DNA of 64,000 bases from Mobula birostris. Its lineage: Eukaryota. Location of the stretch: positions 26,233,629 through 26,297,628 of the forward strand of contig NC_092384.1 of NCBI RefSeq assembly GCF_030028105.1. The letters run 5' to 3'. Shown in pieces: positions 2,346 to 36,909 of this stretch (positions are counted from its first letter, which is position 1; every line of letters starts with the position of its first letter). The position numbers and the translations under genes were made by a program. Below the pieces are notes generated by a model that ran no database searches, was not told the DNA's origin, and was given only the letters and a program-made list of their open reading frames with translations.

Positions 2346-2387
2346 CGTCAGAGTGACGTTGAAGTTAATAAATCCAGTCGATATAAA
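2346..2387 (+). promoter_or_regulatory. Putative AgRP copy 1 core promoter: CRE half-sites (CGTCA 2346-2350, TGACG ~2354-2358) and TATAAA 2382-2387
   Basis: TATA lies ~105 nt upstream of a donor cag|GTAAAT (2492/2493). The intron ends at cctgcag (2664), 5 nt before the ATG, consistent with a short non-coding first exon. Confidence 0.55.
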
Positions 2388-2669: not shown

Positions 2670-2826
2670 ATGGTTAATGCCATGCTGCTCTACTGCTGTG
2701 CTCTACAGCTCATTCTCTGCTTCGGTGCCATCAGAGCTGAACTGGATTCCAACGCCATTAGAGATGTGACCACAAATGCCGACTTTACATCCCTGAGCAG
2801 GGGCAAGACCCTATTTTCTGCTGCAG
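2670..2826 (+). CDS. agrp: Agouti-related protein copy 1, coding exon 1 (signal peptide)
   Basis: MVNAMLLYCCALQLILCFGAIRA... hydrophobic signal; 157 nt; phase-1 donor gcag|GTGGGT. Confidence 0.88.
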
Positions 2827-3550: not shown

Positions 3551-3618
3551 GTCCACTGACTAAACCCACATTGGAAAAAGAACATCAAATGTCAGAAAAG
3601 ATTATGCTCAAATCTGAG
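3551..3618 (+). CDS. agrp: Agouti-related protein copy 1, coding exon 2
   Basis: ttcAG|gtcca...tctgag|GTAAAT; 68 nt; phases join exons 1 and 3 in frame (GPLTKPTLEKEHQMSEKIMLKSE). Confidence 0.8.
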
Positions 3619-4397: not shown

Positions 4398-4586
4398 CTG
4401 ATGTTTGATGTAGTCGAGATGGATAGATCAGAGCATTCGCCCGGGAGATGCGTTCGACACCTAGAGTCCTGCTTTGGCCATGCTCTACCTTGCTGTGATC
4501 CATGCGCCATTTGTTACTGCAGATTCTTTAATGCTATTTGTTACTGCAGGAAAATCGGTAGTGACTGTGACCAGGGCAAGAACTAG
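4398..4586 (+). CDS. agrp: Agouti-related protein copy 1, coding exon 3 (10-Cys inhibitor cystine knot with RFF); total CDS 137 aa
   Basis: RCVRHLESCFGHALPCCDPCAICYCRFFNAICYCRKIGSDC has the AgRP C-x6-C-x6-CC spacing, the RFFN loop and a C-terminal extension; acceptor cttacAG; AATAAA at 4691-4696. Confidence 0.95.
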   Translation: MMFDVVEMDRSEHSPGRCVRHLESCFGHALPCCDPCAICYCRFFNAICYCRKIGSDCDQGKN

Positions 4587-6289
4587 CTTTGTACTTGTTC
4601 TCTCTGTTGACAACTTTTCTGTTTTAGATATAAACAGATTTATATTACGTTATGTTGCTTTCCATGTGCAACTTGTAAGTTTGCAGTTGAAATAAACATT
4701 TTACTTTGATGAGAAGGACAAATTTGCAGTGGAGTGCAGCCCAGCCCAGCTCAGCTCTTAATTTAGTGTGAGAGAGTCATAGAGCACTACAGCCTAGAAA
4801 TAGGCTCTTCAGCCCATCTAGTCCATGCCAAACTGGTCTTCTGCCTAGTCCCTAAACCATAGCCCTCTATACCCCTCTTATCCTTGTACCTGTGCAAACT
4901 TTTCTTAAACTCCTGTTGTGATAGGAAATAATGGATCTACCAGTAATTTGTCACAAATGCCCCAAAATTTCTAATGACAGAGAGAATTTGGTGATTTATT
5001 TGTCTAATTTAAAGCTCAATTTTTACCATACGGTTAAAGGGCGATTACAAAATTCCTTAAATTTGCTACCAGTTATTTGGGGGGAGGTGGAGGACTCTGT
5101 TACATTTTGTAGAATACAAATGTATTACACAGGAGTGTCTTTCTTTGCACTTTGAACAGAAACTTTAACCATGTCTACTTAAATAAACAATGTAATTTCA
5201 ATTCTGCAATATCGCACCAATTAAAAATTTAAATATTGTTCATCTTTAGTTGATAGCGATGACCTAGAGGGCACTCATGTTGCTGAAATATACTTCTGCT
5301 TGCGGAAGCTGCTTCTAGATTCTCAGTCTGGTACAAATTTAGGACCTGAGATTGATTATCTCATGGGTTTGGCATTACCGATTTTCAACCTGTTGAGTTC
5401 CTCCAGCCTGTTGTGAGTGGTGTTTTGACCCCAGCATCTGCAGATTATTTTGTGTTCTGAGGGAGAAAAGCCTGCTTGCATTTAACCTATCTATACCTTT
5501 CATAATTTTGTACACCTCTAGCAAATCCCCCCACATTCTCCTATGCTGCTAACTTATTCACTCTTTCCCTATAACTCATATATTACTTAGATTTATTAAT
5601 AACTTATAATTCCAGACAGGCCTTAAAGAACAACACAGGTTCAGAATTCATGTTGAAGAAGTACATTTATTTTCATTTGCATTTCACATGTTGATTTGCA
5701 CTTAGTTGTCAGCAATGGTGCTATCGATCCAGTCCCTCAGCTCCGTCACGCGGGCATAGACACCAGGAGTGCTGGTGGAGCAATAGCCACTGCCCCAGGA
5801 AACGATGCCAACCAAGTTCCAGACGTTGTCCTTCTGACAGACAAGTGGGTCGTCAGAGTCACCCTGTAAACGAGTCACAGCCTCAGACTTGGTCTCATTG
5901 CCTTTTTGCAACTTGAAAGAGGTTGAAGTACTTTGAAAAGGTTTCATACCATGCAAGACGAGGCACCAGCTGCCCCAGCGCAGATCATGACATCGGTGAC
6001 ACTGCTACCCCAGTAGTTCCTGCAGTTCACGTTGGAGAGGAGCGGAAGAGCAGCTTGCTGAAGTTGGTTAGGTCGCTCAGCAGCTGTGGAAATGTTAGAT
6101 GATACTTCAATCAGTTTTGCTTTATTTTTAAGGGTCATACTCCAATGAAAGTAAAAGGGTATATTTTCAGCCATTAGAAACCTTTTATAAACCTACTGAT
6201 TGACTATACCTCTTTCCGGCCTGTCTCCCTTTTCTCAGTTCTTGTGCTTCCACTGTATCTATTGCCAGGATAAGGCTTTTCTTTCCAGG

Positions 6290-7915
6290 ACAGGGAGGAG
6301 GTGAACGGCGAGGTGTAGCATTTCTGTTGCATGCAGGGATATGTGAGAGAGACTAGTGGGGAGGGCTGAATGGACAAAGGAATCATGGAGGGAGCAATCC
6401 CTATGAAACGCGGATAGTGGGGGAGGGGGGGTAAAGATGTGTTTGGTGCTAGGATCCCACTGAAGATGTGGAGAGTGGAGGGAAGGTAACGATGTGTTGG
6501 TGGTAGGATCTCTTTGCAGACGGCGGAAGTTGTGGAGAATGATGCGTTGGGTGCAGTGGCTCATGAGGTGACAGGTCAGGACAAGAGGAACTCTATCCCT
6601 GTTCAGGTGGCAGGAAGATGGGGTGGACGTGGATGTCCGGGAAATGGAGGAGATGCAGGTGAGGAAGAGAAACCCTGTCCTTTGTCCTTATCCCTGGGAC
6701 AGATGCGACAGAGGTGAAGGAACTGAGCAAAGGGAATGGCGTTTTTACAGGAGATCGGGTGGAAATAGTATCGTCAAAATAGCCGTGGGAATCACCAGGT
6801 TTATAAAAGATGTCAGTAGATAGTTGGTCTCCAGAGATGGAGACAGAGAGATCGAGAAAGGGGAAGGAGGTGTCAGAAATGGACCAAGTGAATTTAAGGG
6901 TAGGGTGGAAGTTGAAGGCAAAGTTTATGATATTGATGAGCTCAGCATGAAGGTGTGAAGCAGCATCTGTGCAGTTGTCAATGTAGTGCAGAAAGAATTG
7001 GGGAGTTTGACCAGAGAAGACTTGGAACATGGACCGCTCTACGCAGCCAGTGAAAAGGTAGGCGTAGCTGGGGCCCATACAGGTACTCACGGCTACCCCT
7101 AGAGTTTGGAAAAAGTGAGAGGGACCAAAGGAGAAATTGTTAAGGGTGGGGACCAGTTCTGCTAGACAAGAAGGTATTGATGGAGGGGAACTGGTTGGGT
7201 CTTTTGGAGGGAAAAATACAGAGAACTTTAAGGCCTTCTTGATGGGGGATAGAAAGTTATAGGGACTGGACATCCATGGTGAAAATGAGGTGGTCACGGC
7301 AGGGAATTGAACATTATTGAGGAGATCGCAAGCATGAAAAGTGTTGCTGTGTTGATCTGGGAAAGGACTGGACCAAGGGGGATATAATGGAGTTGAGGTA
7401 TGTGGACATGAGTTCAGTGGGGCAGGAGATGGCAGAGACAATGGTCTTACTCGTACAGTCACGTTTGTGGATCTTGGGTAGAAGGTAGAAACAAGCATTG
7501 CGGGTTAAGGAAACTATCAGTTTGGTGGCAGTGAATGTGAGATCAATGATGGCGACACTGAGGGTCCAGAATATGGTCCTTTTCAAGGAGGTGTCTTGAG
7601 AGTTTCCGACTGGTATCAGCAAGGTCGAGGTCAGTCTGCCACTCAGCAATAGCACCCCCTTTGTCTGCAGGTTTGCTGGTAAGGTTGTGGTTGGTGTGGA
7701 GAGAGTGGCAGGCAGTGCATTCAGAGGGAGTAAGGCTGGAGGAGGAGGAGAGGAGTGCTGAAATTGTGGCAGTTGATGTTTCATTGGGAATTACAGATGA
7801 AAAGATCTGGAGGTGGCAGAGAACCAGAGCGGGATGTCCAAGAGAAGGTGTAGGATTGGATATGGGAGGAGGGGCCATTGGTGCAGTGGACTGAGGGCCT
7901 GACAATGGAGGGGGC
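6290..7915 (-). mobile_element. Degenerate Penelope-like retroelement fragment in chymotrypsinogen A intron 5
   Basis: KPADKGGA, FYLLPKIHK, MGPSYAYLF, HYIDNC, FHPTLKFTWSIS, PFLDL: Penelope-type RT motifs, frameshifted. Confidence 0.85.
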
Positions 7916-7919
7916 AAAA

Positions 7920-9320
7920 CTCGTCCTACATTTGGGAAGGTGACAGTGAGAGAGCACTTAGGGACCAGTGACTATATTTCTAATAGTTATTAAAGGGTTA
8001 TGGAAAGGAACAGAACTGGTCCACAGGTTCAAGTTCTAAGCTGGGGCAAGGATAATTTTAACAGTATGAGACAGGAGGTTGCAACGATTGTTTGGGGTAG
8101 GTAGTTTGTTGGCACAGAGCCCACAGGTAAGTGGGAGTCTTTTAAAAGTGATCTAGTAAGATCTCAAAGCCTACATGTTCCTGTTGGAGCATAGGGCAAG
8201 GCAGGCAGGAGTACAGAACCTTGGACAATGAGGGATATTGAGGCTCTGACCCTGGAGAAAACGAGGCATAGGTTTGTACAAGCAGCTGAGATCAAGCAAT
8301 TCTCTGGAGGGATATAGGGCAAACAGGGGGCACGAGGGATTTTTGACAGAGAATATGAATAAAATTCTACACAGATTGTATGTATATTAACGTAGAAACG
8401 GAATAAGGCCCCTCAAAGATCACAAGGACATATCTTTGTGTGGAGCCACAGGAGGCAGGCATAGTCCTTAATGAATATCTCTCCTCTGTTATTTTTTAAC
8501 CACAGAGAGTTTTATGAATGGCAGGGCACTGGGGAGTGGTGTAGAGCAGAGTGCAAGTCACAGGTAGGTGAGGAGGTGAAGAAGGCTTTTGACACACTGG
8601 CCTTTGTCTCTCAGGCCACTGAGTAGAGAAGTTGGGAAGTCATGTCATGTTGTGGTTGTATTGGACGCTGGTAAGACTGCTCTTGGAATATTGTATTCAT
8701 TTTTGGTCGCCTTGTTGTAGTAAAGGTGTTGTTAGACTGGAAGAGGTATAAAAAAGATTTATAAGGATGCTGCCAGGATTTGAATAACTGAATTATAGGG
8801 AGAGGTTGAAGAAGCTAGGACTTTATTCCTTAGAGCATTAAGGACTGAAGATGATCTTATAGAGAGGTATAAAATCATGAGTGGCAAAGATAGGGTGAAT
8901 GTATTCCGTCTTTTTCCTCAGAGTTGGGACATCAAGACCAAGAGGGCATAGGTTTAAGGTGAGAGTGGAAAGATTTCAGAGAAACTTCAGGGACAACCTT
9001 TTTTGTTCCACAAAGGGTGGTATCTATGCAGAATCAGCTACTAGAAGAAGTGGTAAGGCAAATATAATGACAAACTTTTTAAAGACAGTTGGACAGGTAC
9101 ATGGATTGGAAAGGATTAGAAAGTTATACACATGGATTAAAGAGGTTTTGAAGGTTATGGGACCATGGACTGGAAAGGTTTAGAAGGTTCTTGGTCCATG
9201 GATCAGAAAGGTTTAGAAAGTTATGGGCCAAACATTGGCAAATGGCACTAAATTGGATGGGGTATCTTAGTCTGCTTGGACCAATTGGGCAGAAGGACCC
9301 ATTTCCAATCTATATGACAC
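7920..9320 (+). mobile_element. Degraded CR1 LINE fragments in intron 5 (longer version 27600-30250 on - in copy B; 45430-46520 in copy C)
   Basis: CR1 ORF2/3' motifs (gagcacttagggaccagtgac; RPRGHRFKVR; ggtaagactgctcttggaatattg). Confidence 0.7.
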
Positions 9321-10191
9321 TGTGAACACCCTATCACTGGATCAGTTGTAGAAGCCCACAATATCCCTCTGATGAACAGAATTATCCTGTTCCTTGACCA
9401 GAGAAACTTGTTGCAGCCATGAAGTATTATTCATAGCATAACCTTCCAGATTGCCAATCATCTTGGGAATCTATCCACTGCTCCCTGTCAGGGTAAGGGT
9501 ACAAAGGCACAGAGCTCGGAACTGCAACACTGTAATTTGTAAAGTTTTGAACTGACGTACGGTAAGCACGAGTCCTTCCCCATCCCGTTGTGACACACAT
9601 CATGCCAGCAGGGTAGTTATCAGATACAGCGGCGAGACAGACTGGCGACACATGACTGTTGAACTGAACGGGGGTTGCAAGCTTCACCACAGAAACATCA
9701 TAATTAATGGTGGATGGGTTCCACTTGGGGTGTGTAATGACCTGTAACAGAGAGAACATGGATGATGGCTGTGCCTAGTACTCATCTTTCACAGTTGGCA
9801 CTTGCTTGAGACCGATAACTTCAGACTGTCCTGGATTTCATGTCAATGCAGCTGCACTCATGAATGGGGAATTGCTTATTCAAAATAGAATTCAGAAGTC
9901 CTTCATTAGAAAACAAAGTCAGCAATTTAAAGAAAAATTGATAGACTTACAAGCTGGAATTGGAAATAAGTGGCTGTATTCTGTGGTTTACCATCACACT
10001 GGTGCTGTTGTCTTGTATAAAACATCTTCAGTTTTTCCTTTCTGAATTTGATTAACCTTTTTGAGATAATTAGTTTTTTTAGTTGCCCAGACACTTCAAT
10101 CAAGCCAGCAGTTCATGTGCTCATTTCTAAACTCTATATGAGCAAAACAGCAATCACCTCAGCACAATAGACAACAATTTCTCATTGCATG

Positions 10192-11478
10192 TACATCTGT
10201 CTCAATTGCTAATGAACTTCTTGCAAACTACTCAACACCAGGACAGAACGGTGGTCAGAAGACAAAAAGGAGATGCAAAAATCATTCAGAAGTGTCAGCA
10301 ATCAATCCCAAATCATTGACTCAAAATGGCTCTGCTTTGCAACGGATTAAGCAATCGTTGGTAATCTGTTGATACACCAACCTTATCTAGGACAAGGAGA
10401 CAAAGGACGAATCATGTAGAGAAAAGGGTGCCAGTCCAGCTACCAGGCCAGGGAGGTTCAAACGTTACCATGTGTGCAGCCATAGAGACACTGGCATTCT
10501 GGCATACAGCCCAAAGACTGGACCTTATACCACCCCACACATTATCAAATTCCCTGATGGGCTTTACAGGCAACCCTTAGTGAACAGGACGCCAGGATCA
10601 ATGGCCACTCTATGTCATCATGTGGGACAATATATCTTTCCACCATTCATCTGCAGTGACTGGCTGGTTTCAGGCTTATCTATTCATGTTCGTTAAACTC
10701 TTTTCACTGCACTCCCCATTCCTCAACTCTCCTGGGTTTTTCCCTTCCTGCAGATGGCAGGCGTTATTACGACCAAAGGCTGCTGATGGACAGTATGATT
10801 GAGGATCACCATGCAGACGTCCAGGGCTGGATTGGGCATCCCGGGGGTGCATTGCTAGGGAGCACATTTGATGTGATGTTGATGAAAACATGATGCCAAA
10901 CCAGGGACAAAATAGATCAGAGATGACCATTATTGTACGGCATTTCTGTTATCAGAGATGAATGATTTTTCTCTTCTAAAGGTGTGGTCAATTTTGTCTT
11001 TGACTTTCATGTAACAACAGTTGAGATTCCAGACTGTGTGTGTAGGTTTGCATTCTTGCCTCTCATCCTGTTGATCCTTCAAAGTTCTTACTCAAGATTG
11101 GAGTTGTAATCATTGTATTTACAATAATAGACAAAGTGTCTTGATCTCTGGCGTTATACAGAGTATGCACCAAGCATCACAATGTATGACTGACTACACT
11201 GATCATGTTATGCCTCTTTGAGAAGGGTGGCCAGTGTCTTGCCAGTGATTACCCAGTGATCACTGATATGTGTTAGTGATGTAATGCTGTGTGCTACTGT
11301 TTTAATTGAATTATTCACTTTTGCTGCAAATATTTATTGTTTTGACTTGCTGAGTGTAATTTGCAGTGAGGATGAGGAGTTTTGCACAATGGATTAGTCC
11401 TTTGCAGCCTGTGTTGACTGTTTAGAGAATGTGGCTACTGTTTTGAACAGTGTGGTTAAGCGACCGAGAAAAACTGTA
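10192..11478 (+). mobile_element. Old Tc1/IS630-superfamily DNA transposon remnant in intron 4
   Basis: Remnant translation SNVTMCAAI..GPY..; HSPFLN..FF..W; QGWI..CIARE.I.CDVDE. Right end gagaaaaactg-TA and left end TA-catctgtctcaattgct resemble terminal inverted repeats. Mirror copy in D at 55847-60281. Confidence 0.6.
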
Positions 11479-12593
11479 ATAGGACTAATAGTATGTTCTC
11501 TTTTAATTTGATCTAACATGGCCATAATACCAAGCATTAATGACTTAAGTTAGTTCTCACTTGATATAAGTGAGATAGGAATAAGACTTTAGTTTATTTT
11601 GTTGGTTCCAAGCTATAAGTATTCAACAGTCTTGAGGCTGACTTCATTTTGTTCTGGCTGAGAGCCTAATGATTTGTCAGCATTGACATTTCCAGAGAGG
11701 TCATGCATTCCAACGTGAAATATCTAATCTGTTTGCTTCATGTTTGTACTTATGACTGAGTTTGTCTTTTCACTTACTACACTGCAAGTAACATTTATTG
11801 CTGGAAGGCCCATGTGTCAGGGTATTGGGGCTAGTGCAGAGGAAAATTAATCTGATTAAAACTGGGGCCCCAACGCCTGAGGGAGGTGACATGTAATAAT
11901 CTTTTATCATCTTTGTCAGCACCTGAAATAATCCTTGCTTTTGCTTGTTATTGATATCTTGTGATTCTATTATTGGTGGTATGAAGTTTATCATGGTGAG
12001 GCATATTCATATTGGAGATTGAAACCACTTCCGGCATTGGACACCCCTTACTAAGATCCTGTGTCCTGTCTGATTGGCATCCATCTCTGCACATCATTTT
12101 GGATCCTAACAGTACTGTAGCCTGAATTTGACCTGAATTTAAACAAATTCCTAGTTTTACAGGGAAATACGTACCTTAGCAATGGACATGGATTTCTGGC
12201 TGGCTTCAGCATTTGAGCTTTTGTCATGGGCACCAACAATAGCAAAGTCGTTCGTACTGTATGTGGCAAAAGAAAAACAAAAGCAGTGACAGAGTTTGCT
12301 TGTTGCAAGATACCAGCAACTCCAAGCTTCATCAGTGGTAGGGTGGGTGGGGGTTGTGGAGGGAAAATTGTACTTTCCAGCCAACGATTTCCCAAACTAT
12401 TCATACCAGGATCTTCCCTCGTTAGGTCAATGTTCATGCCCACAAGTGCAATTTTTCTTTGCCTCATATATCACTTTGAACAAAAATATCAGTTAAAGCT
12501 GCATCATCCCTCAGGAATTAGAGAATGATTCACCAGCACATTTCTTTCTCTCTTTGTAGGTGCTAAGACTTACCTCACGCCACAATGTGCAGC

Positions 12594-12956
12594 AAAAAGA
12601 TTGTTCTGGAAGACCAAATCAGCTGGCCTCAGCCCTAGTAAGTGCTAAACTCTCCGGAGACATACAGTATACAGTCACCTTGCAACACACACAAAATGCT
12701 GGAGCATCTCAGTAGGTCAGGCAGCATCTATGGAGGGGAATAAAGAGTCGATCTTTCAGGCTGAGACCTTTCATCAGGATTGGAAAGGAGAGGGGAAGAA
12801 GCCAAATGAGAAGGTGGGGAAGGAGTACAAGCTAAAAGGTGATAGGCGAAGCCAGGGTGAGGGGGAAGGTGGGTGGCGGAGGGGCGGAATGAAGTGAGGA
12901 GTTTGTAGGTGGATAAGGCAAAGGGCAGTAGGAGAAGATATTTTTGTTTTTTGATT
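12594..12956 (+). other. Templated insertion copied from ~15398-15742 into chymotrypsinogen A exon 3
   Basis: Near-identical direct copy (aaagattgttctggaagacc...ggagaagatat), plus short filler and loss of 12 exon nt (WVVT). Confidence 0.92.
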
Positions 12957-13997
12957 GTTTTCATTGATCAAGGAACCACCGCAGAAATGCCGACCAGAGT
13001 CAGTCTGTTACACGAGGAAAAAGGATGCTCAGTATTACCACAAAAACATCTTAAGTTTTTCTCCACCATACAGAAGTAGTTTTATTGAAAGTTGACAGTG
13101 ACTCCAGATTGCAAATTGGATAAAAGGAAACAAGACTCATAATATAACAAGGAGGTTATCAAACAGCATTGGATCATGAATTCAAAGAAATTCGTTGAAA
13201 AACAAAGTTCTAAAGATGCAATAAATAACTACTGTAAAACTAAACTTAAATTTTAAATGAAACCTATGATTAAAAATAGGGCTAATGTTGTAATACTAAG
13301 AACAGTTAAGTGGGATTTAGAAAATGATGTGGAAATCTGAAAAGTTGGATAAGAATTGCTTAAGAGGAGTTTGAAAAATGAATAAAAGATAATGTAAGGA
13401 AGTTTATGGGGATATAAGCTATTTTCCTGAAGAATATTTAAAGTAAAGAGAGCCTGGAACCAATGTGAGACAAGAGACGGAGATGAATTGTGCAAGATGA
13501 AATGGCAGCAAGATATTAAGCACTGGATTATATGATGCAAGTACTAATGGAATGAGAATCTGGATGCTACACAGAGGGATATGTCACTGCAGGAAGGGAG
13601 CAGTTCTAAAATGGAATCAAGAAGCTCCATGCAGTCGAAATAATTTGTAAAGGAGGATAATGTAATCTTAGTATTCAAATTGCCATTTAGCACTGGAGAA
13701 TTACTAATCAAAAGATAGAGAAAAATAGGCCAAGTAATCATAAACTAACTGGTATGAGGACATTTATGGATCAACTCTGAGAATCTATAATTTCCCACAA
13801 TTAGTAAGAATTCAGACATACATTAATTAAGAATAACCAGTTTGGATTTGTTAAAGATAAATAGTGATTTAGTAGAGGATTGTAGAAAGTATATATTACA
13901 TAAAGGTTTTAAGAAAGTAATTCACATGAAGCTTGTTAAATAAAAACAGACAAACATATATTAGGACAGATAAAAAGTTGATTGACAGAAACAAGAG

Positions 13998-14075
13998 AGA
14001 CAGAGAGAGAGGGTGAGAAAGAGTGAGAGTGTGTGAGAGAGAGAGAGTGAGAGAGAGAGAGAAAGTGAAAGAGAG
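13998..14075. repeat. (GA/CT)n compound microsatellite in intron 2; expanded in the mirror copy at ~24265-24390
   Basis: Directly visible. Confidence 0.85.
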
Positions 14076-14459
14076 TAGACTGGGTGGGACAGAGAGGGAA
14101 ACTGTGCACCCCAAACAATGGTGCTGAGTTCACCTTCTGACAAATTAAAGACACTTCAGGAAAACCTCTGTAATATTCAAAATTAGGAAAATGGATAATT
14201 TTTTTGAGAGTTGTGGTGACTAAAAGCAAAACAGGATTATTTAAAGAAATGCCACTGGAATGCAAACAGATTTACTTTTTAATCTGTCGAACAGGAATGA
14301 GCAGAGAAATCTCTTCATATAACTTCATCTTTTGAGCAAAGAGCTGCAAATATTGCCCATTACTGTGTCTATTAACCAAACAGGATGCAATATAAATACA
14401 GAAGTATCTGGCCTTTTGTAGCAATTTCAACAGTTCTAAGGCTTTCGTATTTTTACGTG

Positions 14460-14580
14460 TCCGAGTTGCTAGCTCGATGTTCAACCCAGCACGGATGGAA
14501 AGTGTGCAAGAGAGCCGGCTGGATTTGAACTCGGGACCCTTCGCGCTGAAGGTGGGCAATGATGCCACTATGCCACCAGC
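14460..14580 (-). mobile_element. tRNA-derived SINE (mirror copy 23743-23870 on +)
   Basis: A-box tggcatagtgg and B-box gttcaaatcc / gttcgaatcc. Confidence 0.7.
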
Positions 14581-15039
14581 CAGCGAGTCTAGTGATTAAG
14601 TTAGGGTCAAATCGGGGGTTGCTAGGCAATGTGGCTCGAAGGGCTGGAAGGGCCTATTCCGTGTTGTCTCTCTAAGTACTGTAAGTAAGAAACAACAAAA
14701 TCAAATAACTTGCTGGATAACATTAACTGACCTGCAGGGAAATCTGCCAGGGCCAGGATCCTGCAACAGCCTCTTGACCATTAACAATTCGACTGAAGCC
14801 TAACACAACCGGGGTGATGGGTGGAGATCCGCAGCCTGCACCTGGGTGGAGAGAAGCAGTTGTTCTATGTAAATGTTGCTAATTGCATTCAACATGGCAC
14901 CCTCCGTTCCAATGGTTAAAAGTAGAATTCTAATTTCAAGTGATATTACCATAGGTGACTCCGATGAAAGCGAAGCAGGAGAGAAGCCAGAGAAACGCCA
15001 TGGTGAGCTTATAACATTCTTTAAGAGACTGATGATTGG

Positions 15040-22177: not shown

Positions 22178-22414
22178 TAAGTTCACCATGGCGTTTCTCT
22201 GGCTTCTCTCCTGCTCCGCTTTCATTGGGGTCACCTATGGTAATATCACTTGAAATTAGAATTCTAGTTTTAACCATTGGAACAGAGGGTGCCGTGTTGA
22301 ATGCAATTAGCAACATTTACATAGAGCAACTGCTTCTCTCCACCCAGGTGCAGGCTGCGGATCTCCAGCCATCACCCCGGTTCTGTCAGGCTACAGTCGA
22401 ATTGTCAATGGTGA

Positions 22415-23658
22415 ACAATCAGCAGCCATGGGCTCTTCTAAGCAGCTGCCTAGAACTCTGAAAATTAAAATAAATGATGCCCACAAAGCAGGAAAAGGCT
22501 ATAAGAAGATAGCAAAGCGTTTTCAGGTAGCCGTTCCCTCAGTTCGTAATGTAATTAAGAAATGGCATTTAACAGGAACGGTGGAGGTCAAGTTGAGGTC
22601 TGGAAGACCAAGAAAACTTTCCAAGAGAACTGCTTGTAGGATTGCTAGAAAGGCAAATCAAAACCCCTGTTTGACAGCAAAAGATCTTCAGGAAGATTTA
22701 GCAGACTCTGGAGTGGTGGTGCACTGTTCTACTGTGCAGCGACACCTGCACAAATATGACCTTCAAGGAAGAAAAACTTTCCTGCGTCCTCACCACAAAA
22801 TTCAGCATCAGAAGCTTGCAAAGGAACATCTAAACAAGCCTGATGCATTTTGGAAACAAGTCCTGTGGACTGATTAAGTTAAAATAGAACTTTTTGGCCG
22901 CAATGAGCAAAGGTATGTTTGGAGAAAAAAGGGTGCAGAATTTCATGAAAAGAACACCTCTCCAACAGTTAAGCACGGGGGTAGATCGATCATGCTTTGG
23001 GCTTGTGTTGCAGCCAGTGGCACGGGGAACATTTCACTGGTAGAGGAAAGAATGAATTCAATTAAATACCAGCAAATTCTGGAAGTAAACGTCACACCAT
23101 CTGTAAAAAAGCTGAAGATGAAAAGAGGATGGTTTCTATAACAGGATAATGATTCTAAACACACCTCAGAATCCACAATGGACTACCTCAAGAGGCACAA
23201 GCTGAAGGTTTTGCCATGCCCCTCACAGTCCCCCGACCTAAACATCTTCGAAAAACTGTAGGTAGACCTCAAAAGAGCAGTGCATGTAAGACGGCCCAAG
23301 AATCTCACAGAACTAGAAGCCTTTTGCAAGGAAGAATGGGTGAAAATCCCCCAAACAAGAATTGAAAGACTCTTAGCTGGCTACAGAAAGCGTTTACAAG
23401 TTGTGATACTTGCCAAAGGGGGTGTTACTAAGTACTGACCATGCAGGGTGCCCAAACCTTTGCTTCAGGCCCTTTTCCTTTTTTGTTATTTTGAAACTGT
23501 TAAAGATGGAAATAAAAAAGTAATCTTACTTAAAATATTAAAGAAATGTGTCATCTTTAACTTCATGCCTTTTGGAAATCAGGTCATCTTTTACTCGCTT
23601 AGCTATTCACAGTAACAGAAATTTTGACCAGGGGTGCCCAAACTTTTGCATACCACTG
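22415..23658 (+). mobile_element. Tc1 (DD34E-type, IR/DR) DNA transposon; left end deleted, transposase carries internal stops
   Basis: ORF 22428-22877 (HTH domains, GRPRK, WTD) continues past stops as VKHGG, QDND.KH, SPDLN..E to ..TKY* at 23438. Direct repeats gggtgcccaaac at ~23446 and ~23632; terminus cactg-TA. Confidence 0.93.
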
Positions 23659-24263
23659 TATTTAGAATAGGCCCTTCCAGCCCTTCGAACCACATTGCCC
23701 AGCAACACTCGATTTAACCCTAACCTAATCACTAGACTCACCAGCTGGTGGCATAGTGGCATCAGTGCTGGACTTCAGCGCAAAGGCTCCCAAGTTCGAA
23801 TCCAGCCGGCTCCCTTGCACGCTTTCCATCCATGCTGGGTTGAACGTCCAGCTAGCAACTTGGCTTTGTAAAAATACGAAAGCCTTAGAACTGTTGAAAT
23901 TGCTACAAAAGGCCAAATAATTCTGTATTTATATTGCATCCTGTTTGGTTAATAGACACAGTAATGGGCAATACTTGCTGCTCTTTGCCCAAAAGGTGAA
24001 GTTATATGAAGAGCTGTCTCTGCTCATTCCTGTTTGACAGATTAAAAAGTAAATATGTTTGCATTCCAGTTTTAAAACAACAGGATTATTTTCTTTAAAT
24101 AATCCTGTTTTGCCTTCAGTCACCACAACTCTCGAAAAAATTATCTATTTTCCTAATTTTGAATATTACAGAGGTTTTCCTGAAGTGTCTTTCATTTGTC
24201 GGAAAGTGAACTCAATGCCATTGTTTGGGGTGCACAGTTTCCCTCTCTGTCCCACCCAGTCTA

Positions 24264-24306
<43 letters not shown>

Positions 24307-27300
24307 TCTCTCTCTTTCTCACCCTCTCTCTCTCTGTCTCACTCTCACTCTCTCGCACTCTCTTTCTCACCCTCTCTCTCTGTCTCTCTTGTTTCTGTCA
24401 ATTAATTTTTTATCTGTCCTAATATATGTTTGTCTGTTTTTATTTAACAAGCTTCACGTGAATTACTTTCTTAAAACCTTGATGTAATATAGACTTTCTA
24501 CAATATGCTACTAAATCACTATTTATCTTCAACAAATCCAAGCTGGCTATTCTCAATTAATGTATTTCTGAATTCTTACTAATTGTGGGAAATTATAAAT
24601 TCTCAGAGTTGATCCTTAAATGTCCTCATACCAGTTGGTTTATGATTACTTGGCCTATCTTTCTCTATCCTTTGATTAGTAATTCTCCAGTGCTAAATGG
24701 CAATTTGAATACTAAGATTACATCATCCTCCTTTACAAATTATTTCGACTGCATGGAGCTTCCTGATTCCTTCATTTTAGAACTGCTCCCTTCCTGCAGT
24801 GACATATCCCTCTGTGTAGCATCCAGATTCTCATTCCATTAGTACTTGCATCATATAATCCAGTGCTTAATATCTTGCTGCCATTTCATCTTGCACAATT
24901 CATCTCCATCTCTCCTCTCAGATTGGTTCCAGGCTCTCTTTACTTTAAATATTCTTCAGGAAAATAGCTTATATCCCCATAAACTTCCTTACATTATCTT
25001 TTATTCATTTTTCAAACTCCCTTTAAGCAATTCTTATCCAACTTTTCAGATTTCCACATCATTTTCTAAATCCCACTTAACTGTTCTTGGTATTACAGTA
25101 TTAGCCCTATTTCTAATCATATGTTTCATTTAAAATTAAAGTTTAGTTTTACAGTAGTTATTTATTGCAACTTTAGAACTTTGCTCTTCAACGAATTTCT
25201 TTGAATTCATGATCCAATGACGTTCGATAACTTCCTTGTTATATTATGAGTCTTGTTTCCTTTTATCCAATTTGCAATCTGGAGTCACTGTCAACTTTCA
25301 ATAAAACTACTTCTGTATGGTGGAGGAAAACTTAAGATGTTTTTATGGTAATACTGAGCATTCTTTTTCCTCGTGTAACAGAGTGACTCTGGTCGGCATT
25401 TCCGCGGCAGTTCCTTGATCAATGAAAACTGGGTTGTCACCGCTGCACATTGTGGCATGAGGTAAGTCTTAACACCTACAAAGAGAGAAAGAAATGTGCT
25501 GGTGAATCCTTCTCTAATTCCTGAGGGATGATGCAGCTTTAACTGATATTTTTGTTCAAAGTGATATATGAGGCAAAGAAAAATTGCTCTTGTGGGCATG
25601 AACATTGACTTAACGAGGGAAGATCCTTGCATGAATAGTTTGGGAAATCGTTGACTGGAAAGTACAATTTTCACTCCACCCCCACCCCCACCCCTGATGA
25701 AGTTTGGAGTTGCTGGTATCTTGCAACAAGCAAACTCTGTCACTGCTTTTGTTTTTCTTTTGTCACATACAGTACGAACGACTTTGCTATTGTTGGTGCC
25801 CATCACAAAAGCTCAAAAACTGAAGCCAGCCAGAAATCCATGTCCATTGCTAAGGTACGTATCTCCCTGTAAAACTAGGAATTTGTTTGAATTCAGGTCA
25901 AATTTGGGCTACAGTACTGTTAGGATCCAAAATGATGTGCAGAGATGGATGCCATACAGACAGAACACAGGATCTTAGTAAGGGGTGTCCATTACCGAAA
26001 GTGGTTTCAATCTCCAATATGAATATGCCTCGCCATGATAAACTTCATAGCACCAAGAATAGAATCACTAGATATTGATAACAAGCAAAAGCAAGAATTA
26101 TTTCAGGTGCTGCTGAAGATGATAAAAGATTGTTACACATCACCTCCCTCAGGCGTTGGGGCCCCAGTTCTAATCAGATTAATTTTCCTCTGCACTAGCC
26201 CCAATACCCTGACACATGGGCCTTCCAGCAATAAATGTTACTTGCAGTGTAGTAAGTGAAAAGACAAACTCAGTCATAAGGACAGACATGAAGCAAACAG
26301 ATTAGACATTTCATGTTGGAATGCATGGCATAGAGTGGCCATTGATCCTGGCGTCCTGTTCACTAAGGGTTGCCTGTAAAGCCCATCAAGGAATTTGATA
26401 ATGTGTGGGTTGGTATAAGGTCCAGTCTTTGGGATGTATGCCAGAATGCCAGTGTCTGATATGGCCGCACACATGGTAACGTTTGAACCTCTATAGATTG
26501 GTAGCAGGACTGGCACCCTTTTCTCTACATGATTTGTCCTTTGTCTCCTTGTCTTAGATAAGGTTGGGGTATCAACAGATTACCAACGATTGCTTAATTC
26601 ATTGCATTTTGAGTCAATGATTTGGGATTGATTGCTGACACTTCTGAATGATTTTTGCATCTTCTTTTTGTCTTCCGACCACCGTTGTGTCCTGGTGTCG
26701 AGTGGTTTGCAAGAAGTTCATTAGCATTTGAGACAGATGTACATGCAATGAGAAATTGTTGTCTATTGTGCTGAGGTGATTGCTGTTTTGCTCATATAGA
26801 GTTTAGAAATGAGTACATGAACTGCTGGCTTGATTGAAGTGTCTAGGCAACTGAAAAAAAACTAATTATCCCAAAAAAGTTAATCAAATTCAGAAAGGAA
26901 AAACTGAAGAAGTTTTATACAAGATGACAGCACCAGTGTAATGGTAAACCACAGAATACAGCCACTTATTTCCACTTCCAGCTTGTAAGTCTATTTATTT
27001 TTCTTTAAATTGCTGACTTTGTTTTCTAATGAAGGGCTTTTGAATTCTATTTTGAATAAGCAATTCCCCATTCATGAGTGCAGCTGCATTGACATGAAAT
27101 CCAGGAGAGTCTGAAGTTATCGGTCTCAAGCAAGTGCCAACTCTAAAAGATGAGTACTAGGCACAGCCATCATCCATGTTCTCTCTGTTACAGGTCATTA
27201 CACACCCCAAGTGGAACCCCTCCACCATTAATTATGATGTTTCTGTGGTGAAGCTTGCAACCCCCGTTCAGTTCAACAGTCATGTGTCGCCAGTCTGTCT

Positions 27301-27699
27301 CGCCGCTGTATCTGATAACTACCCTGCTGGCATGATGTGTGTCACAACGGGATGGGGAAGGACTCGTGCTTACCGTACGTCAGTTCAAAACTTTACAAAT
27401 TACAGTGTTGCAGTTCCGAGCTCTGTGCCTTTGTACCCTTACCCTGACAGGGAGCAGTGGATAGATTCCCAAGATGATTGGCAATCTGGAAGGTTATGCT
27501 ATGAATAATACTTCATGGCTGCATGGTCAAGGAACAGGATAATTCTGTTCATCAGAGGGATATTGTGGGCTTCTACAACTGATCCAGTGATAGGGTGTTC
27601 ACAGTGTCATATAGATTGGAAATGGGTCCTTCTGCCCAATTGGTCCAAGCAGACTAAGATACCCCATCCAATTTAGTGCCATTTGCCAATGTTTGGCCC

Positions 27700-27920
27700 A
27701 TAACTTTCTAAACCTTTCCAATCCACAGACTCATAGCCTTCCAAATCTTTCAAAACCATAGACCCATAATCTAACTCTTTCCAATCCATGGACCCATAAC
27801 CTTCTAAACCTTTCTGATCCATGGACCCATATCCTTCTAATCCTTTCCAATCCATGGTCCCATAACCTTCAAAACCTCTTTAATGCATGCATCATAACTT
27901 TCTAATCCTTTCCAATCCAG
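27700..27920. repeat. ~33-bp minisatellite derived from the CR1 3' end (~7 units; ~4 units at 9100-9230 and 46310-46435)
   Basis: Repeated ccatggacccataaccttctaaacctttccaat-like unit; ORF 27673-27855 shows periodic MDWKGLEGYGS. Confidence 0.8.
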
Positions 27921-30900
27921 GTACCTGTCCAACTGTCTTTTAAAAGTTGTCATTTTATTTGCCTTACCACTTCTTCTGGTAGCTGATTCTGCATAGATAC
28001 CACCCTTTGTGGAACGAAAAAGGTTGTCTCTCAAGTTTCTTTGAAATCTTTCCACTCTCACCTTAAACCTATGCCCTCTTGGTCTTGATGTCCCAACTCT
28101 GGGGAAAAAGATGGAATACATTCACCCTATCTTTGCCACTCATGATTTTATACCTCTCCATAAGATCATCTTCAGTCCTCTATGCTGTAAGGAATAAAGT
28201 CCTAGCCTCTTCAACCTCTCCCTATAATTCAGTTATTCAAATCCTGGCAACATCCTTATAAATCTTTTTTATACCTCTTCCAGTCTAACAACACCTTTAC
28301 TACAGCAAAGCGACCAAAAATGAATACAAATTCCAAGAGCAGTCTTACCAGCATCCAATACAACCACAACATGACATGACTTCCCAACTTCCCTACTCAT
28401 TGGTCTGAGAGATAAAGGCCAGTGTGTCAAAAGCCTTCTTCACCTCCTCACCTACCTGTGACTTGCACTCTGCTCTACACCACTCCCCAGTGCCCTGCCA
28501 TTCACTGTGAAAATCCTACCTGGATTTGACTTTCCAAAATATAGCACTTCATATTTATCTGAATTCAATCCAATTTTCCACTTTTTGCCCCATTTACCCA
28601 GTTGATCAAGATCTGCCTGTAATTTTTGATAACCCTTTTCCATTGTCCACTATACCACCTGCTTTAATGTTGAATGCAGACTTATTAACCGTGCCTTGCC
28701 CAGATTATTATCCAAATCATTAATAAACAATGGGCTCAGCACAGCCCCTGAGGCACACTATTTGTCATGTGTTTCTAGTCCAATAAGCAACCTTCTACCA
28801 TCACCCTTTGCTTTCTACCATCAAGACAATCATGTATCCAATTAGCCAGCTCTCTCTGCATTCTATGTAATCTCACCTTCCGGAGCAGCCTACCATGTGG
28901 AACTTAATCAAAGGCCTCACTGAAGTCCATAGAAACTAGATCTACCACCCTCCCCTCATAGACTTTCTATGACACATACTCAATCAAGTTCGTAAGACAT
29001 GATCTCCCATGCACAAAACCATACTGATCTAATCAATTCCTGACTTTCCAGATTGACATATATTTTGTCTCTCAGAATCCTTTCCAGTAACTGACAGATG
29101 TTAGGCCTACTGCTTTATAGTTCCCAGGTTTTTCTTTGCCCTCTTCTTAAATAAAGGCACAACATTTGCTACTCTCCTGTCTACTGTCTCCTCAGTTGTG
29201 GCTAACGATGATGCAAATATCTCAGACAAGGCTCCCACAATTTCTTCTCTAGTTTCCCATAGTCTTCTCTGATAAACCTGGTCAAACCTGTTGATTTGTC
29301 TACTTTCCTACCTTTTAAGTCATACAGCACCCTTCTACTGTAATGCAGACTATCCCCAAGACAACTCCATTTAAATTTCTTAGTTGTTAAGTCTTCATGC
29401 AACTCTCTATGGGAAAAAAAAACAGAGGAGAGATATTCATTAAGGACTTTGCCTGCCTCCTGTGGCTCCACACAAAGATATGTCCCTGTGATCTTTGAGG
29501 GGCCTTATTCTGTTTCTATGTTAATATACTTATACAATCACTGTAGAATTTTGTTAATACTCTCTGTCAAAGTTCCCTCATGCCCCCTGTTTGCCCAATA
29601 TCCCTCCAGAGATTTACTTGATCCCAGCTGCTTGTACCTAACCCATGCCTCCTTTTCTCCAGGGTCAGGGCCTCAATATCCCTCATTATCCAATGTTCCG
29701 TACTCCTGCCTGCCTTGCCCTATGCTCCAACAGGAACATGCAGGCTTTGAGCTCTCACTAGATCACATTTAAAAGACTCCCACTTACCTGTGGGCTCTGT
29801 GCCAATAAACTACCTACTCCAAACAATCGCTGTATCCTCCTGTCTCATACTGTTAAAATTATCCTTGCCCCAGCTTAGAACTTGAACCTGTGGACCAGTT
29901 CTGTCCCTTTCCATAACCCTTTAATAACTAATAGAACTATAGTCACTGGTCCCTAATTGCTCCCTCAGTGTCTCCTTCCTAAGTCTAGGTCGAGTTTTGG
30001 CCTCTCCATTGTCGGACCCTCAGTATACTGTCCAAGGTATCTTCCTTGAAATCACCTTAAGCCCTTAACTGTATGTATGTTCCTCAGTATTTTAGGAAAG
30101 TTTAAATCTCCTTCAAGAATACTCCTATTATTCTTGCATCTCTCGACAATCTCCCTGCATGTTTATTCCTCTACTTCCCGTTCACAATTGGGAGGCCTAT
30201 AGTACAATCCCAACATTATTTCTCGGCTCCACCCACAAAGCCTCACTGGACGATCCTTCAATAAACCACAAACCTGATGCAGTCTGTCCATTCCAGAGTC
30301 ATTTGTCGGGTACTCGACTTGAACATCAGCAAAGGTAAATTTTCAAAGAAACAGCAACTTAGAGATATATGGTCATCAATCAATTTGTGCTGACATTGGA
30401 AAACATAGTTTTTAACAGATTGTGGAAAGAATTCCTGAGTTAGCTTCTTGCTTTATTTGTTTTAACATAATATTATTGCATCATAGGATAACTTCACTCA
30501 CCTCAACTCTGAACTGATACCACACTCACTTTCATGGACACTGAAATCATATATTCTGTATTTATTTATTTGTTTATTTATTTTTGCACAGGTTGTTTTC
30601 CTATGCACAGTGGCTATTTGTATTTGTTAATGTAGCTTTTTCATAAATTCTATTGTACTTGTAAGTGCCCGCAAGAAAAATGAATCTCAATTTGGCACAC
30701 GATGACATATACGTACGAACTTTCATGATAAATTTACTGACACGTTGACTTTACTTTTAATCAGACTGAATCAGTTATATGGAGGAGAGAAGCAAATCCT
30801 AGGGGCCTAGATAGAGTGCCGTGGACAGGATGTTTCCTAGAGTGGAGGAGTCTAAGAGCAGTGGGCTCAGGCTCACAATACAAGAATGCTCCTTTAGAAC

Positions 30901-30924
30901 AAGGATGAGGAGGAAATTCTCTCC

Positions 30925-31740
30925 AACCCCAGGCCTCTCAGAATCCCCCGTCACTTTTTGGGACTTCAGAGCCACCATCTTCTTCCCACCCTACCTTCCC
31001 AGAACACCCTAACCCTCCACCAACTCCCCAACTCTTTCTGCACTACATTGACAACTGCATAGATGCTGCCTCACACCTACATGCTGAGCTCATCAATTTC
31101 ATAAACTTTGCCTTCAACTTCCACCCTACCCTTAAATTCACTTGGTCCATTTCTGACACCTCCCTCCCCTTTCTCAATCTTTCTGTCCCCATCTCTGGAG
31201 ACCAACTATCCACTGGCATCTTTTATAAACCTGGTGATTCCCACGGCTATCTTGACGATACTATTTCCACCCGATCTCCTGTAAAAACGCCATTCCCTTT
31301 GCTCAGTTCCTTCACCTCTGTCACATCTGTCCCAGGGATAAGGATAAAGAACGGGGTTTCTCTTCCTCACCTGCATCTCCTCCATTTCCCGGACATCCAC
31401 GTCCACCCCATCTTCCTGCCACCTGAACAGGGATAGAGTTCCTCTTGTCCTGACCTGTCACCTCATGAGCCACTGCACCCAACGCATCATTCTCCACAAA
31501 TTCCGCCGTCTGCAAAGAGATCCTACCACCAACACATCGTTACCTTCCCTCCACTCTCCACATCTTCAGTGGGATCCTAGCACCAAACACATCTTTACCC
31601 CGCCTCCCCCACTATCCGCGTTTCATAGGGATTGCTCCCTCCATGATTCCTTTGTCCATTCAGCCCTCCCCACTAGTCTCTCTCACATATCCCTGCATGC
31701 AACAGAAATGCTACATCTCGCCGTTCACCTCCTCCCTGTC
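30925..31740 (+). mobile_element. Internally deleted Penelope-like fragment, intron 5 of copy B
   Basis: Matches 6290-7010 and 45060-45155 in inverted orientation. Confidence 0.75.
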
Positions 31741-33445
31741 CTGGAAAGAAAAGCCTTATCCTGGCAATAGATACAGTGGAAGCACAAGAACTGAGAAAAG
31801 GGAGACAGGCCGGAAAGAGGTATAGTCAATCAGTAGGTTTATAAATGGTTTCTAATGGTTGAAAATATACCCTTTTACTTTCATTGGAATATGACCCTTA
31901 AAAAAATAAAGCAAAACTGATTGAAGTATCATCTAACGTTTTCACAGCTGCTGAGCGACCTAACAAACTTCAGCAAGCTGCTCTTCCTCTCCTCTCCAGC
32001 GTGAACTGCAGGAACTACTGGGGTAGCAGTGTCACCGATGTCATGATCTGCGCTGGGGCAGCTGGTGCCTCGTCTTGCATGGTATGAAACCTTTTCAAAG
32101 TACTTCAACCTCTTTCAAGTTGCAAAAAGGCAATGAGACCAAGTCTGAGGCTGTGACTCGTTTACAGGGTGACTCTGGCGGCCCACTTGTCTGTCAGAAG
32201 GACAACGTCTGGAACTTGGTTGGCATCGTTTCCTGGGGCAGTGGCTATTGCTCCACCAGCACTCCTGGTGTCTATGCCCGCGTGACGGAGCTCAGGGACT
32301 GGATCGATAGCACCATTGCTGACAACTAAGTGCAAATCAACATGTGAAATGCAAATGAAAATAAATGGACTTCTTCAACATGAATTCTAAACCTGTGTTG
32401 TACTTTAAGGCCTGTCTGGAAATATAAGTTATTAATAAATCTAAGTAATATATGAGTTATAGGGAAAGGGTGAATAAGTTAGCAGCATAGGAGAATGAGC
32501 GGGGATTTGCTTGAGGTGTACAAAATTATGAAAGGTATAGATAGGTTAAATGCAAGCAGGCTTTTCTCCCTCAGAACACAAAATAATCTGCAGATGCTGG
32601 GGTCAAAACACCACTCACAACAGGCTGGAGGAACTCAGCAGGTCGAAAACTGGTAATGCCAAACCCATGAGATAATCAATCTCAGGTTCTAAATTTGTAC
32701 CAGACTGAGATTCTAGAAGCAGCTTCCGCAAGCAGAAGTATATTTCAGCAACATGAGTGCCCTCTAGGTCATCGCTATCAACTAAAGATGAACAATATTT
32801 AAATTTTTAATTGGTAAGATATTGCAGAATTGAAATTACATTTCTTTCTTCTGTTTATTTAAGTAGACATGGTTAAAGTTTCTGTTCAAAGTGCAAAGAA
32901 AGACACTTCTGTGTAATACATTTGTATTCTACAAAATGTAACAGAGTCCTTCACCTCCCCCCAAATAACTGGTAGCAAATTTAAGGAATTTTGTAATTGC
33001 CCTTTAACCGTATGGTAAAAATTGAGCTTTAAGTTAGCCAAATAAATCACCAAATTCTCTCTGTCATTAGAAATTTTGGGGCATTTGTGACAAATTACTG
33101 GTAGATCCATTATTTCCTATCACAACAGGAGTTTAAGAAAAGTTTGCACAGGTACAAGGATAAGAGGGGTATAGAGGGCTATGGTTTAGGGACTAGGCAG
33201 AAGACCAGTTTGGCATGGACTAGATGGGCTGAAGAGCCTATTTCTGGGCTGCAGTGCTCTATGACTCTCTCACACTAAATTACAAGCTGAGCTGGGCTGC
33301 ACTCCACTGCAAGTTTGTCCTTCTCATCAAAGTAAAACGTTTGTTTCAACTGCAAACTTACAAGTTGCACATGGAAAGCAACATAACATAATATAAATCT
33401 GTTTATATCTAAAACAGAAAAGTTGTCAAGAGGACAACTACAAAG

Positions 33446-33634
33446 CTAGTTCTTGCCCTGGTCACAGTCACTACCGATTTTCCTGCAGTAACAAATAGAA
33501 TTAAAGAATCTGCAGTAACAAATGGCGCATGGATCACAGCAAGGCAGAGCATGGCCAAAGCAGGACTCCAGGTGTCGAACGCATCTCCTGGGCGAACGCT
33601 CTGATCTATCCATCTCCACTGCATCAAACATCAC
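33446..33634 (-). CDS. agrp: Agouti-related protein copy 2, coding exon 3
   Basis: VMFDAVEMDRSERSPRRCVRHLESCFGHALPCCDPCAICYCRFFNSICYCRKIGSDCDQGKN*; acceptor cttacAG intact. Confidence 0.93.
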   Translation of the reverse strand: MMFDAVEMDRSERSPRRCVRHLESCFGHALPCCDPCAICYCRFFNSICYCRKIGSDCDQGKN

Positions 33635-33738
33635 CTGTAAGAGAAAATGTTAAAGTTTACAGAATATGAAATGTCACAACACACATCAAAGTTGCTGGTA
33701 AACGCAGCAGGCCAGGCAGCATCTGTAGGAAGAGGCGC

Positions 33739-33774
33739 AGTCGACGTTTCAGGCCGAGACCCTTCGTCAGGACT
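33739..33774 (-). ncRNA. Minimal type I hammerhead ribozyme motif (Penelope terminal repeat), sense to AgRP copy 2 pre-mRNA
   Basis: AGUC-CUGACGA-AGGGUCUCGGCCU-GAAA-CGUC^GACU: conserved core, stem I AGUC/GACU, stem II AGG/CCU, palindromic ACGU stem III. Confidence 0.75.
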
Positions 33775-36002: not shown

Positions 36003-36038
36003 AGTCCTGACGAAGGGTCTCGGCCTGAAACGTCGACT
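36003..36038 (+). ncRNA. Minimal type I hammerhead ribozyme motif (second arm of the Penelope element)
   Basis: agtc ctgacga agggtctcggcct gaaa cgtc gact. Confidence 0.75.
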
Positions 36039-36909
36039 GTACCTCTTCCTACAGATGCTGCCTGGCCTGCTGCGTTCACCAGCAACTTTGATGTGTGTTG
36101 CTTGAATTTCCAGCATCTGCAGAATTCCTGTTGTTTGCATGAGTCACATACCATTTTCAATTTCTCCAATTTTGCAACAAGAATAACTAATCGCATTTAA
36201 CATTTAAACATGGACTACCGACTATATACCCTGTGGACCAAGTGGTCTCCTCGTTCTTTAAGGAGATATAATGCCGTAAACCTGGGACTATGTAAACCAG
36301 CATTGCCTCTTCCATACATAAGTCAGGGAGTGGTTAAACCAACCTGGGCTAGCCCGGGTAAGGAGGGTGTCTTGGCATTCAGCAGAGCTAAGCCTGCCAA
36401 TAGGCAGATGTGTCCAGGTTATTCAGCTTTAAGAAACACAAGGCAATATTCGGCTTTAGAAACACAAGGCAACAGAAATGACCTCATAACAGATTAGTTG
36501 AGGCTGAAAAATGCAGGTCTTGCTGGTGCTGGAGAGGACAGAACATGATTGCAGAAACACCTAAGGTACCCCAATATCACAGTGCCGTTGGGATTAAAAA
36601 TTGTGTGAGAATATTTCCTCATTCATAATTTTCTTTTATTTTAACTAAGAAACAATTTTATATTAAATAAATACAATTCATATTAAAGAATCCTAAATAT
36701 TAAATAGCAGATGATTGTGTACTAATGTTGGGCCAGAACAGTGAATAACAGAATTTAATTGAACTGCTGATGTTTCAGCTTTGATTTGTATTATATTTTA
36801 CAATATTTGTTATAAAAAGTCAAATTTGAAAAGTAATTAAAATTTAATCAGTTTACCAGATATCAGTCACTCTGCCTTTGGAACGATAATATATAAAAAC
36901 TGGATTTAC

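Follow-up and report, generated by a model that had tools for sequence, protein, structure and literature searches.

The window, that is, the whole 64,000-nucleotide stretch of Mobula birostris DNA analysed here, contains two complete genes for the agouti-related protein (AgRP) on opposite strands, each encoding 137 residues with canonical GT-AG coding junctions (Table 1). The two products score 58.5 and 58.9 bits against the Pfam Agouti family PF05039 (cut-off 27), and in the alignment all cysteines and the RFF motif are present in both. Matches to the PDB favor AgRP (1HYK, E=2.9e-15) over ASIP (1.4e-9), and the top matches among those listed are shark and ray AgRPs. In a protein tree built without ASIP rows, both copies join the AgRP of M. 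hypostoma with a support of 100/100; the three proteins form a three-way fork, in which the duplication and the birostris/hypostoma split are not ordered. L72 is common to copy 1 and M. hypostoma, at a site that is variable. Inspection of frames and junctions revealed neither stops, frameshifts nor coding-exon splice lesions in the two AgRP genes. Exon 2 (3551-3618 in copy 1) is six codons shorter than that of Pristis, a feature shared by both copies and M. hypostoma.

Table 1. Coordinates of the AgRP genes, their putative signals and the neighboring elements in the window
Feature	Position	Strand	Remarks
AgRP copy 1 coding exon 1	2670..2826	+	signal peptide, pro-region begins; no difference from copy 2
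AgRP copy 1 coding exon 2	3551..3618	+	four non-synonymous differences vs copy 2 (70, 72, 73, 74)
AgRP copy 1 coding exon 3	4398..4586	+	last part of pro-region; ten-cysteine domain intact, with RFFNA loop
Altered processing region R85-S-E-H88-S-P-G91-R92, copy 1	4425..4448	+	codon comparison of the copies
AgRP copy 2 coding exon 1	37703..37859	-	
AgRP copy 2 coding exon 2	36910..36977	-	
AgRP copy 2 coding exon 3	33446..33634	-	ancestral RSER-SPRR; derived A121S (RFFNS) at 33499-33497
Putative TATA box, copy 1 (TATAAA)	2382..2387	+	TACAAA in copy 2 at 38147-38142; assigned from position
Proximal poly(A) signal, copy 1 (AATAAA)	4691..4696	+	AACAAA in copy 2 at 33345-33340
Repeat-derived insertion, copy 2 intron 2	33679..36142	-	2464 bp, flanked by TGTGAC
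Chymotrypsinogen copy A	5702..15001	-	convergent with AgRP copy 1; 346-bp insert splitting exon 3; GDSGGP changed to GDSDDP
Chymotrypsinogen copy A'	22188..32329	+	convergent with AgRP copy 2; insertion in exon 2 at 22412; FCGGS changed to FRGSS
Chymotrypsinogen copy B	41037..48776	-	exons 3-6 only (without 1, 2, 7); FRGSS
Chymotrypsinogen copy B'	54671..62757	+	exons 3, 4, 6, 7 only (without 1, 2, 5)
Third AgRP-upstream segment	63034..64000	+	717 nt with 21 differences vs copy 1 and 23 vs copy 2

Self-comparison of the window revealed a pair of inverted arms, approximately at 1-16,650 and 20,330-40,790, in addition to two further partial arms. The AgRP copies are inverted, lie ~30 kb apart and carry different insertions; over the AgRP-bearing 7 kb, 206 mismatches in 7000 aligned bases separate them (2.9%). 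The longest perfect identity between them is a tract of 462 nt (2519-2980, corresponding to about 38010-37549) that covers coding exon 1 and both flanks, which by its sequence is probably a product of gene conversion.

Each arm also bears a chymotrypsinogen gene, and all four copies of this gene in the window are damaged. The element that interrupts exon 2 of copy A' is a transposase-like insertion, which we take to be Tc1-like, and FRGSS in this copy represents a Cys>Arg change. In all six pairwise comparisons of the chymotrypsinogens, pN is close to pS, on small counts. AgRP and the same chymotrypsinogen are found on one chromosome in Pristis, Narcine and Heptranchias, which does not imply adjacency; the usual neighbor gene of AgRP is ATP6V0D1.

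A nest of inverted repeats such as this one is prone to poor assembly, and the two AgRP copies might be uncollapsed haplotypes or the outcome of a misassembly. We consider this extremely unlikely in view of the 2.9% divergence, the inverted placement with different insertions, the four mutually diverged chymotrypsinogen copies and the three upstream segments.

The array has several further features. The NCBI protein-coding record "chymotrypsinogen 2-like [Mobula birostris]" corresponds residue for residue to the exons of copy A, including ENNQKT and GDSDDP. Exon 3 of chymotrypsinogen A has received a copy of a 346-bp segment from upstream of the gene, with an identity of 99.7% that points to a very recent event; the segment occurs at 12596-12941, 15398-15742 and 21247-21585. 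Two AT-rich, frameshifted retroelement-like insertions, presumably L1-like, lie at about 49300-54530 (+) and 56100-59250 (-) and are 75% alike over 335 nt, the first occupying the expected place of exons 1-2 of chymotrypsinogen B/B'. The third AgRP-upstream segment meets the 3' flank of chymotrypsinogen B' in inverted orientation, the junction falling within a shared repeat. Because it runs off the window in the + orientation, a third AgRP gene may lie beyond the window, with a start near 65,950 if the segment continues.

Processing region of copy 1 and its polarity

Codons 85-93 of copy 1 (4425-4451, +) read AGA TCA GAG CAT TCG CCC GGG AGA TGC (RSEHSPGRC), compared to AGA TCA GAG CGT TCG CCC AGG AGA TGC (RSERSPRRC) in copy 2 (33607-33581, -). 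The difference at base 4435 (CGT>CAT) is a CpG transition that results in R88H, and that at base 4443 (AGG>GGG) results in R91G; they account for two of the nine amino-acid differences between the AgRP copies. The R-x-x-R motif that ends four residues before the first knot cysteine is present in copy 2 (RSER) and absent from copy 1 (RSEH). A previous sequence-only reading had claimed that two substitutions stripped copy 1 of both R-X-X-R and RR while copy 2 kept them (RSEH-SPGR versus RSER-SPRR), and the codons bear this out at both bases. The comparison it drew with the processed mammalian protein also holds, as the altered position aligns with the Arg79-Glu-Pro-Arg82 processing site of mammals.

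To place these changes among homologues, the best 120 of 204 matches were combined with all three matches of a second search, which after removal of eight unnamed entries yielded 115 named homologues, a bird-heavy set gathered mostly with the copy 2 sequence as query. Among those listed, R-x-x-R is found in 114 of 115 and RR in all 115. The sole exception for R-x-x-R is a duck gene model, in which the P4 arginine is absent and the P1 arginine is kept, and the P1 arginine is accordingly present in 115/115. All 11 chondrichthyans among the matches listed retain both motifs, which answers the question of polarity raised by the sequence-only reading: the state of copy 1 is clearly derived, as judged from the aligned sequences. 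RSEH/SPGR as the ancestral state was rejected, with an occurrence of 0/115 in the named homologues listed. As both the P1 arginine and RR occur in 115/115 listed AgRPs, from sharks to mammals, an AgRP gene that is intact yet lacks them is a rarity. The copy 1 exon used as query against short proteins gave three matches, none of which has the variant, leaving the allele without an independent record in that search.

With M. hypostoma and Pristis as reference, six changes are derived in copy 1 (70, 73, 74, 80, 88 and 91) and two in copy 2 (76 and 121), position 72 being ambiguous. RFFNA is shared by 113 of the 115 named homologues listed, compared to RFFNS in copy 2 and RFFKA in M. hypostoma. 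The A121S change of copy 2 (33497-33499, -) introduces the residue that ASIP has at this position and recurs in one of the 115 listed homologues (Sarcophilus). The M. hypostoma AgRP-like protein (P0003) has RFFKA, which is found in 1/115 of those listed, in addition to A112T; the Mobula AgRP-like cluster to which it belongs has six members and could include paralogues. Its RFFKA loop fits a loosened constraint on AgRP within the genus, without proving it.

Copy 1 retains R85 and R92, which constitute a formal R85-X6-R92 motif with Cys93 at P1'; K57-X4-K62 and K62-X6-K69 are found in both AgRP copies. As a general rule, the basic residues of convertase sites are spaced by n = 0, 2, 4 or 6 residues, and lysine at P1 makes a poor substrate. 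By this rule copy 1 might still be processed at another site and behave near-normally, since R85-X6-R92 fits the spacing and the two lysine pairs are available in both copies. The residual R85-X6-R92, however, has a disulfide-bonded cysteine at P1', the other pairs would put lysine at P1, and, with a P1 arginine in every one of the 115 named homologues listed, no alternative site appears to substitute readily. Despite the report that the knot alone suffices for antagonism (PMC6928319), we regard near-normal behavior through such processing as very unlikely.

Predicted products and regulatory signals

Human AgRP is cleaved after Arg79-Glu80-Pro81-Arg82, which frees AgRP(83-132) (PMC3519472, PMC6928319). 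Both arginines of the site are described as fully conserved in agrp and missing from asip1, asip2 and agrp2, which are taken there to be unprocessed (PMC3519472). Mature AgRP(83-132) retains RR; its N-terminal basic residues bind heparan sulfate and govern strength and duration in vivo with receptor potency unchanged, and the cystine knot by itself is enough for antagonism (PMC6928319).

By alignment, R88H takes away the P1 arginine of a known PC1/3-type site. The cleaved form of AgRP is more potent than the pro-form. For R91G we depart from the sequence-only reading, which had counted RR as a further processing site: RR stays in the mature mammalian peptide, as part of a basic patch that binds heparan sulfate (PMC6928319). 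Because RR is inside the mature peptide, R91G is better read as a loss of charge than as the loss of a second known cut site; it would also delete a dibasic site that might have served as a fallback. In sequence, copy 1 has a fully ancestral knot. By analogy with the mammalian protein, copy 1 would likely yield a secreted pro-form, which would still block MC3R/MC4R but probably with less strength.

The analogy between copy 1 and the unprocessed ASIP, also suggested by the earlier reading, turned out to be weak. The selectivity for MC1R is reported to stem from ASIP's C-terminal loop, not from missing processing (bioRxiv 10.64898/2026.09.03.748715), and the single ASIP-type residue, the Ser after RFFN, sits in copy 2 rather than copy 1. 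This Ser, at the position equivalent to Ala115 of AgRP, is probably tolerated in copy 2, because Ala115 touches MC4R via its main-chain carbonyl (same preprint) and this residue also occurs in a marsupial record.

The claim that copy 2 has altered signals was confirmed as well, with TATAAA>TACAAA at the TATA-like element and AATAAA>AACAAA at the proximal poly(A) signal. The TATAAA of copy 1 is ~110 nt upstream of a GT donor at 2494, and a putative TATA box is described as conserved upstream of mammalian Agrp (PMC1931611). A gene model of Narcine translates through the homologous sequence (E=0.048), in which the residue is Tyr either way and TAT and TAC are indistinguishable. A distal AATAAA is found in both copies (5182 and 32859), that of copy 2 being 587 nt after the stop. 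In HBB, the AATAAA>AACAAA change lowers the output without abolishing it, with read-through to a downstream signal (PMC8092010). A reduced output of copy 2 through the promoter and poly(A) substitutions is plausible from these sequences. The earlier reading's description of copy 1 as unprocessed and of copy 2 as attenuated goes further than this, as copy 1 still has R85-X6-R92 and copy 2 its distal AATAAA.

The 2464-bp insertion in intron 2 of copy 2 lies ~40 nt upstream of the acceptor of exon 3, the polypyrimidine tract and AG of which are intact. It consists of ~670-bp inverted ends (97% alike) around retroelement-like sequence and holds a nested 176-bp inverted repeat (99%). The CRE-like and STAT-like motifs scanned within 1 kb upstream are common to the two copies, so this 1 kb gives no hint of a new expression domain.

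Divergence of the copies and its explanation

The AgRP copies have 9 non-synonymous differences in 322 sites and 3 synonymous differences in 89, giving a pN of 0.028, a pS of 0.034 and an overall pN/pS of about 0.8, on small counts. Neutrality predicts 9.5-11.8 non-synonymous differences compared to the 9 observed. In contrast, an omega of 0.2 over exons 2-3 predicts 1.5 changes (P(>=9) = 3e-5), and its rejection indicates that constraint was relaxed on at least one copy, or that positive selection acted on part of it. The changes are clustered, with 8 in 96 non-synonymous sites of residues 53-92 as against a single one in 109 for the knot (Fisher p=0.014). The excess in the pro-region over neutrality has p=0.008-0.027, whereas the deficit in the knot is not significant (p=0.09-0.17), nor is the 6:2 ratio of changes derived in copy 1 and copy 2 (p=0.29).

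In a post hoc chance test, 6-7 random amino-acid changes were placed on exons 2-3. Both motifs were destroyed in 0.8-3.0% of the trials, or in 3.4-11% if the changes were confined to the pro-region. R-x-x-R alone was destroyed in 11-37% of the trials over exons 2-3, a frequent loss that is partly due to the CpG codon of R88. Sites in CpG context differ at 19%, compared to 2.4% elsewhere, a figure inflated by ascertainment.

We propose, as the explanation that is somewhat better than even, that selection was relaxed in a decaying duplication, which left copy 1 as a poorly processed and probably weaker ligand. AgRP would have been duplicated as a passenger of an inverted segmental duplication that also bore a chymotrypsinogen gene; redundancy would then have relaxed purifying selection, and the copies would have been damaged differently. 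Within residues 70-91, copy 1 acquired six or more derived amino-acid changes, including R88H and R91G. If expressed, it would be secreted mostly as a signal-cleaved pro-form of about 114 residues with a normal cystine knot, which by extrapolation from mammals would still be an inverse agonist of MC3R/MC4R, probably weaker and with less binding to heparan sulfate. Copy 2 retains the cut site, with its output probably lowered by the substitutions in the core promoter and poly(A) signal. Neither copy's change would require selection.

The neutral-level amino-acid divergence of AgRP, the CpG position of R88H and the damage to all four chymotrypsinogens favor this decay, and the rare changes at conserved sites in both copies and in the M. 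hypostoma protein are consistent with it. Against it stand the uneven distribution between pro-region and knot (p=0.014) and the loss of both motifs, expected by chance in only about 1-11%. Copy 1 also retains TATAAA and AATAAA. The intact frames, ten cysteines and coding splice sites of AgRP, unlike those of the chymotrypsinogens, argue weakly in the same direction, because a rough hand estimate predicts no more than about one disabling hit at such divergence.

The complementary lesions of the two copies, one impaired at processing and the other at output, could also reflect dosage sharing, in which the lesions arose by drift and both copies were then kept by selection. The intactness of both AgRP frames and knots beside decayed neighbors is consistent with this, as are the merely lowered output of HBB with an AACAAA-type change (PMC8092010) and the downstream AATAAA of copy 2. 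However, the overall amino-acid divergence proceeds at a neutral rate, and a third copy past the window would remove the need for both. Altogether, dosage sharing is possible, yet on the unlikely side.

The sequence-only reading had gone further and proposed a reciprocal sub-functionalisation. Taken as selected divergence, this would make copy 1 an unprocessed, ASIP-like full-length antagonist with a role of its own, differing in tissue, diffusion or potency, and copy 2 the supplier of the processed peptide. The loss of two near-invariant arginines from one copy, the excess of changes in the pro-region next to an unchanged copy 1 knot, and the existence of unprocessed agouti-family members (asip1, asip2 and agrp2, as inferred in PMC3519472) are in line with such selected divergence. 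It needs selection on both copies, whereas the amino-acid divergence matches neutrality; the surrounding array is decaying, with all four chymotrypsinogen neighbors damaged, and a third AgRP copy may adjoin the window. Moreover, the chance probability is borderline and post hoc, copy 1 lacks a basic or proline-rich N-terminal domain of the ASIP type, and the CRE-like/STAT-like upstream motifs scanned occur in both copies. We therefore judge selected divergence improbable.

We favor the decaying duplication, and if copy 1 is such a drifting spare, which is the likelier case, the locus is an instance of ordinary early duplicate decay. If copy 1 is the expressed gene, a pelagic filter feeder would have a naturally processing-deficient AgRP, which would bear on why cleavage is so conserved. 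It is rather doubtful that the main expressed AgRP of the manta is an uncleavable pro-form kept by selection, with the cleavable form as a low-output minor copy. In that event, the hunger signal of a jawed vertebrate would operate largely without convertase maturation, providing a natural test of the roles of AgRP processing and of the basic N-terminal segment.

Comparison with known systems

The feature is genuine as well as unusual: two near-invariant arginines are missing from an otherwise intact AgRP gene, beside a sister with substitutions in its regulatory signals. Literature searches over titles and abstract openings found no report of AgRP being duplicated in a ray. In a mobulid genome preprint (10.64898/2026.10.27.761883), the main text does not contain "agouti", "melanocortin" or "chymotrypsin"; its supplements might list the duplication. 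Further background is given in PMC3397983, PMC9599618, PMC3734370, PMC2928777, PMC7471746 and PMC5686644.

Among the matches listed, the closest is the M. hypostoma agouti-related protein-like P0003, which likewise has 137 residues, three coding exons, a ten-cysteine domain and a similar RFF loop. It is identical to copy 1 at 128 of 137 residues and to copy 2 at 131 of 137. It retains R88 and R91, both lost in copy 1, but differs by its own rare RFFKA; the manta AgRPs, moreover, are two copies in an inverted duplication.

Compared to mammalian pro-AgRP, which is cut by PC1/3 at Arg79-Glu-Pro-Arg82 (PMC3519472), RSER of copy 2 aligns with the site, whereas copy 1 has His at P1. Similar to copy 1, ASIP, ASIP2 and teleost AgRP2 are without R-x-x-R before the knot, and human ASIP resembles copy 2 in the Ser two residues after RFF. 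However, ASIP, ASIP2 and AgRP2 are ancient paralogues with basic N-terminal regions, whereas copy 1 is a standard AgRP with an AgRP-type knot.

The nearest precedent found is the tandem duplication of exon 3 in cichlid agrp2, which is likewise recent and structurally unstable, with biased use of one copy (PMC6916709). The cichlid case concerns one exon of agrp2, whereas in the ray whole AgRP genes are inverted and duplicated, with a change at the processing site.
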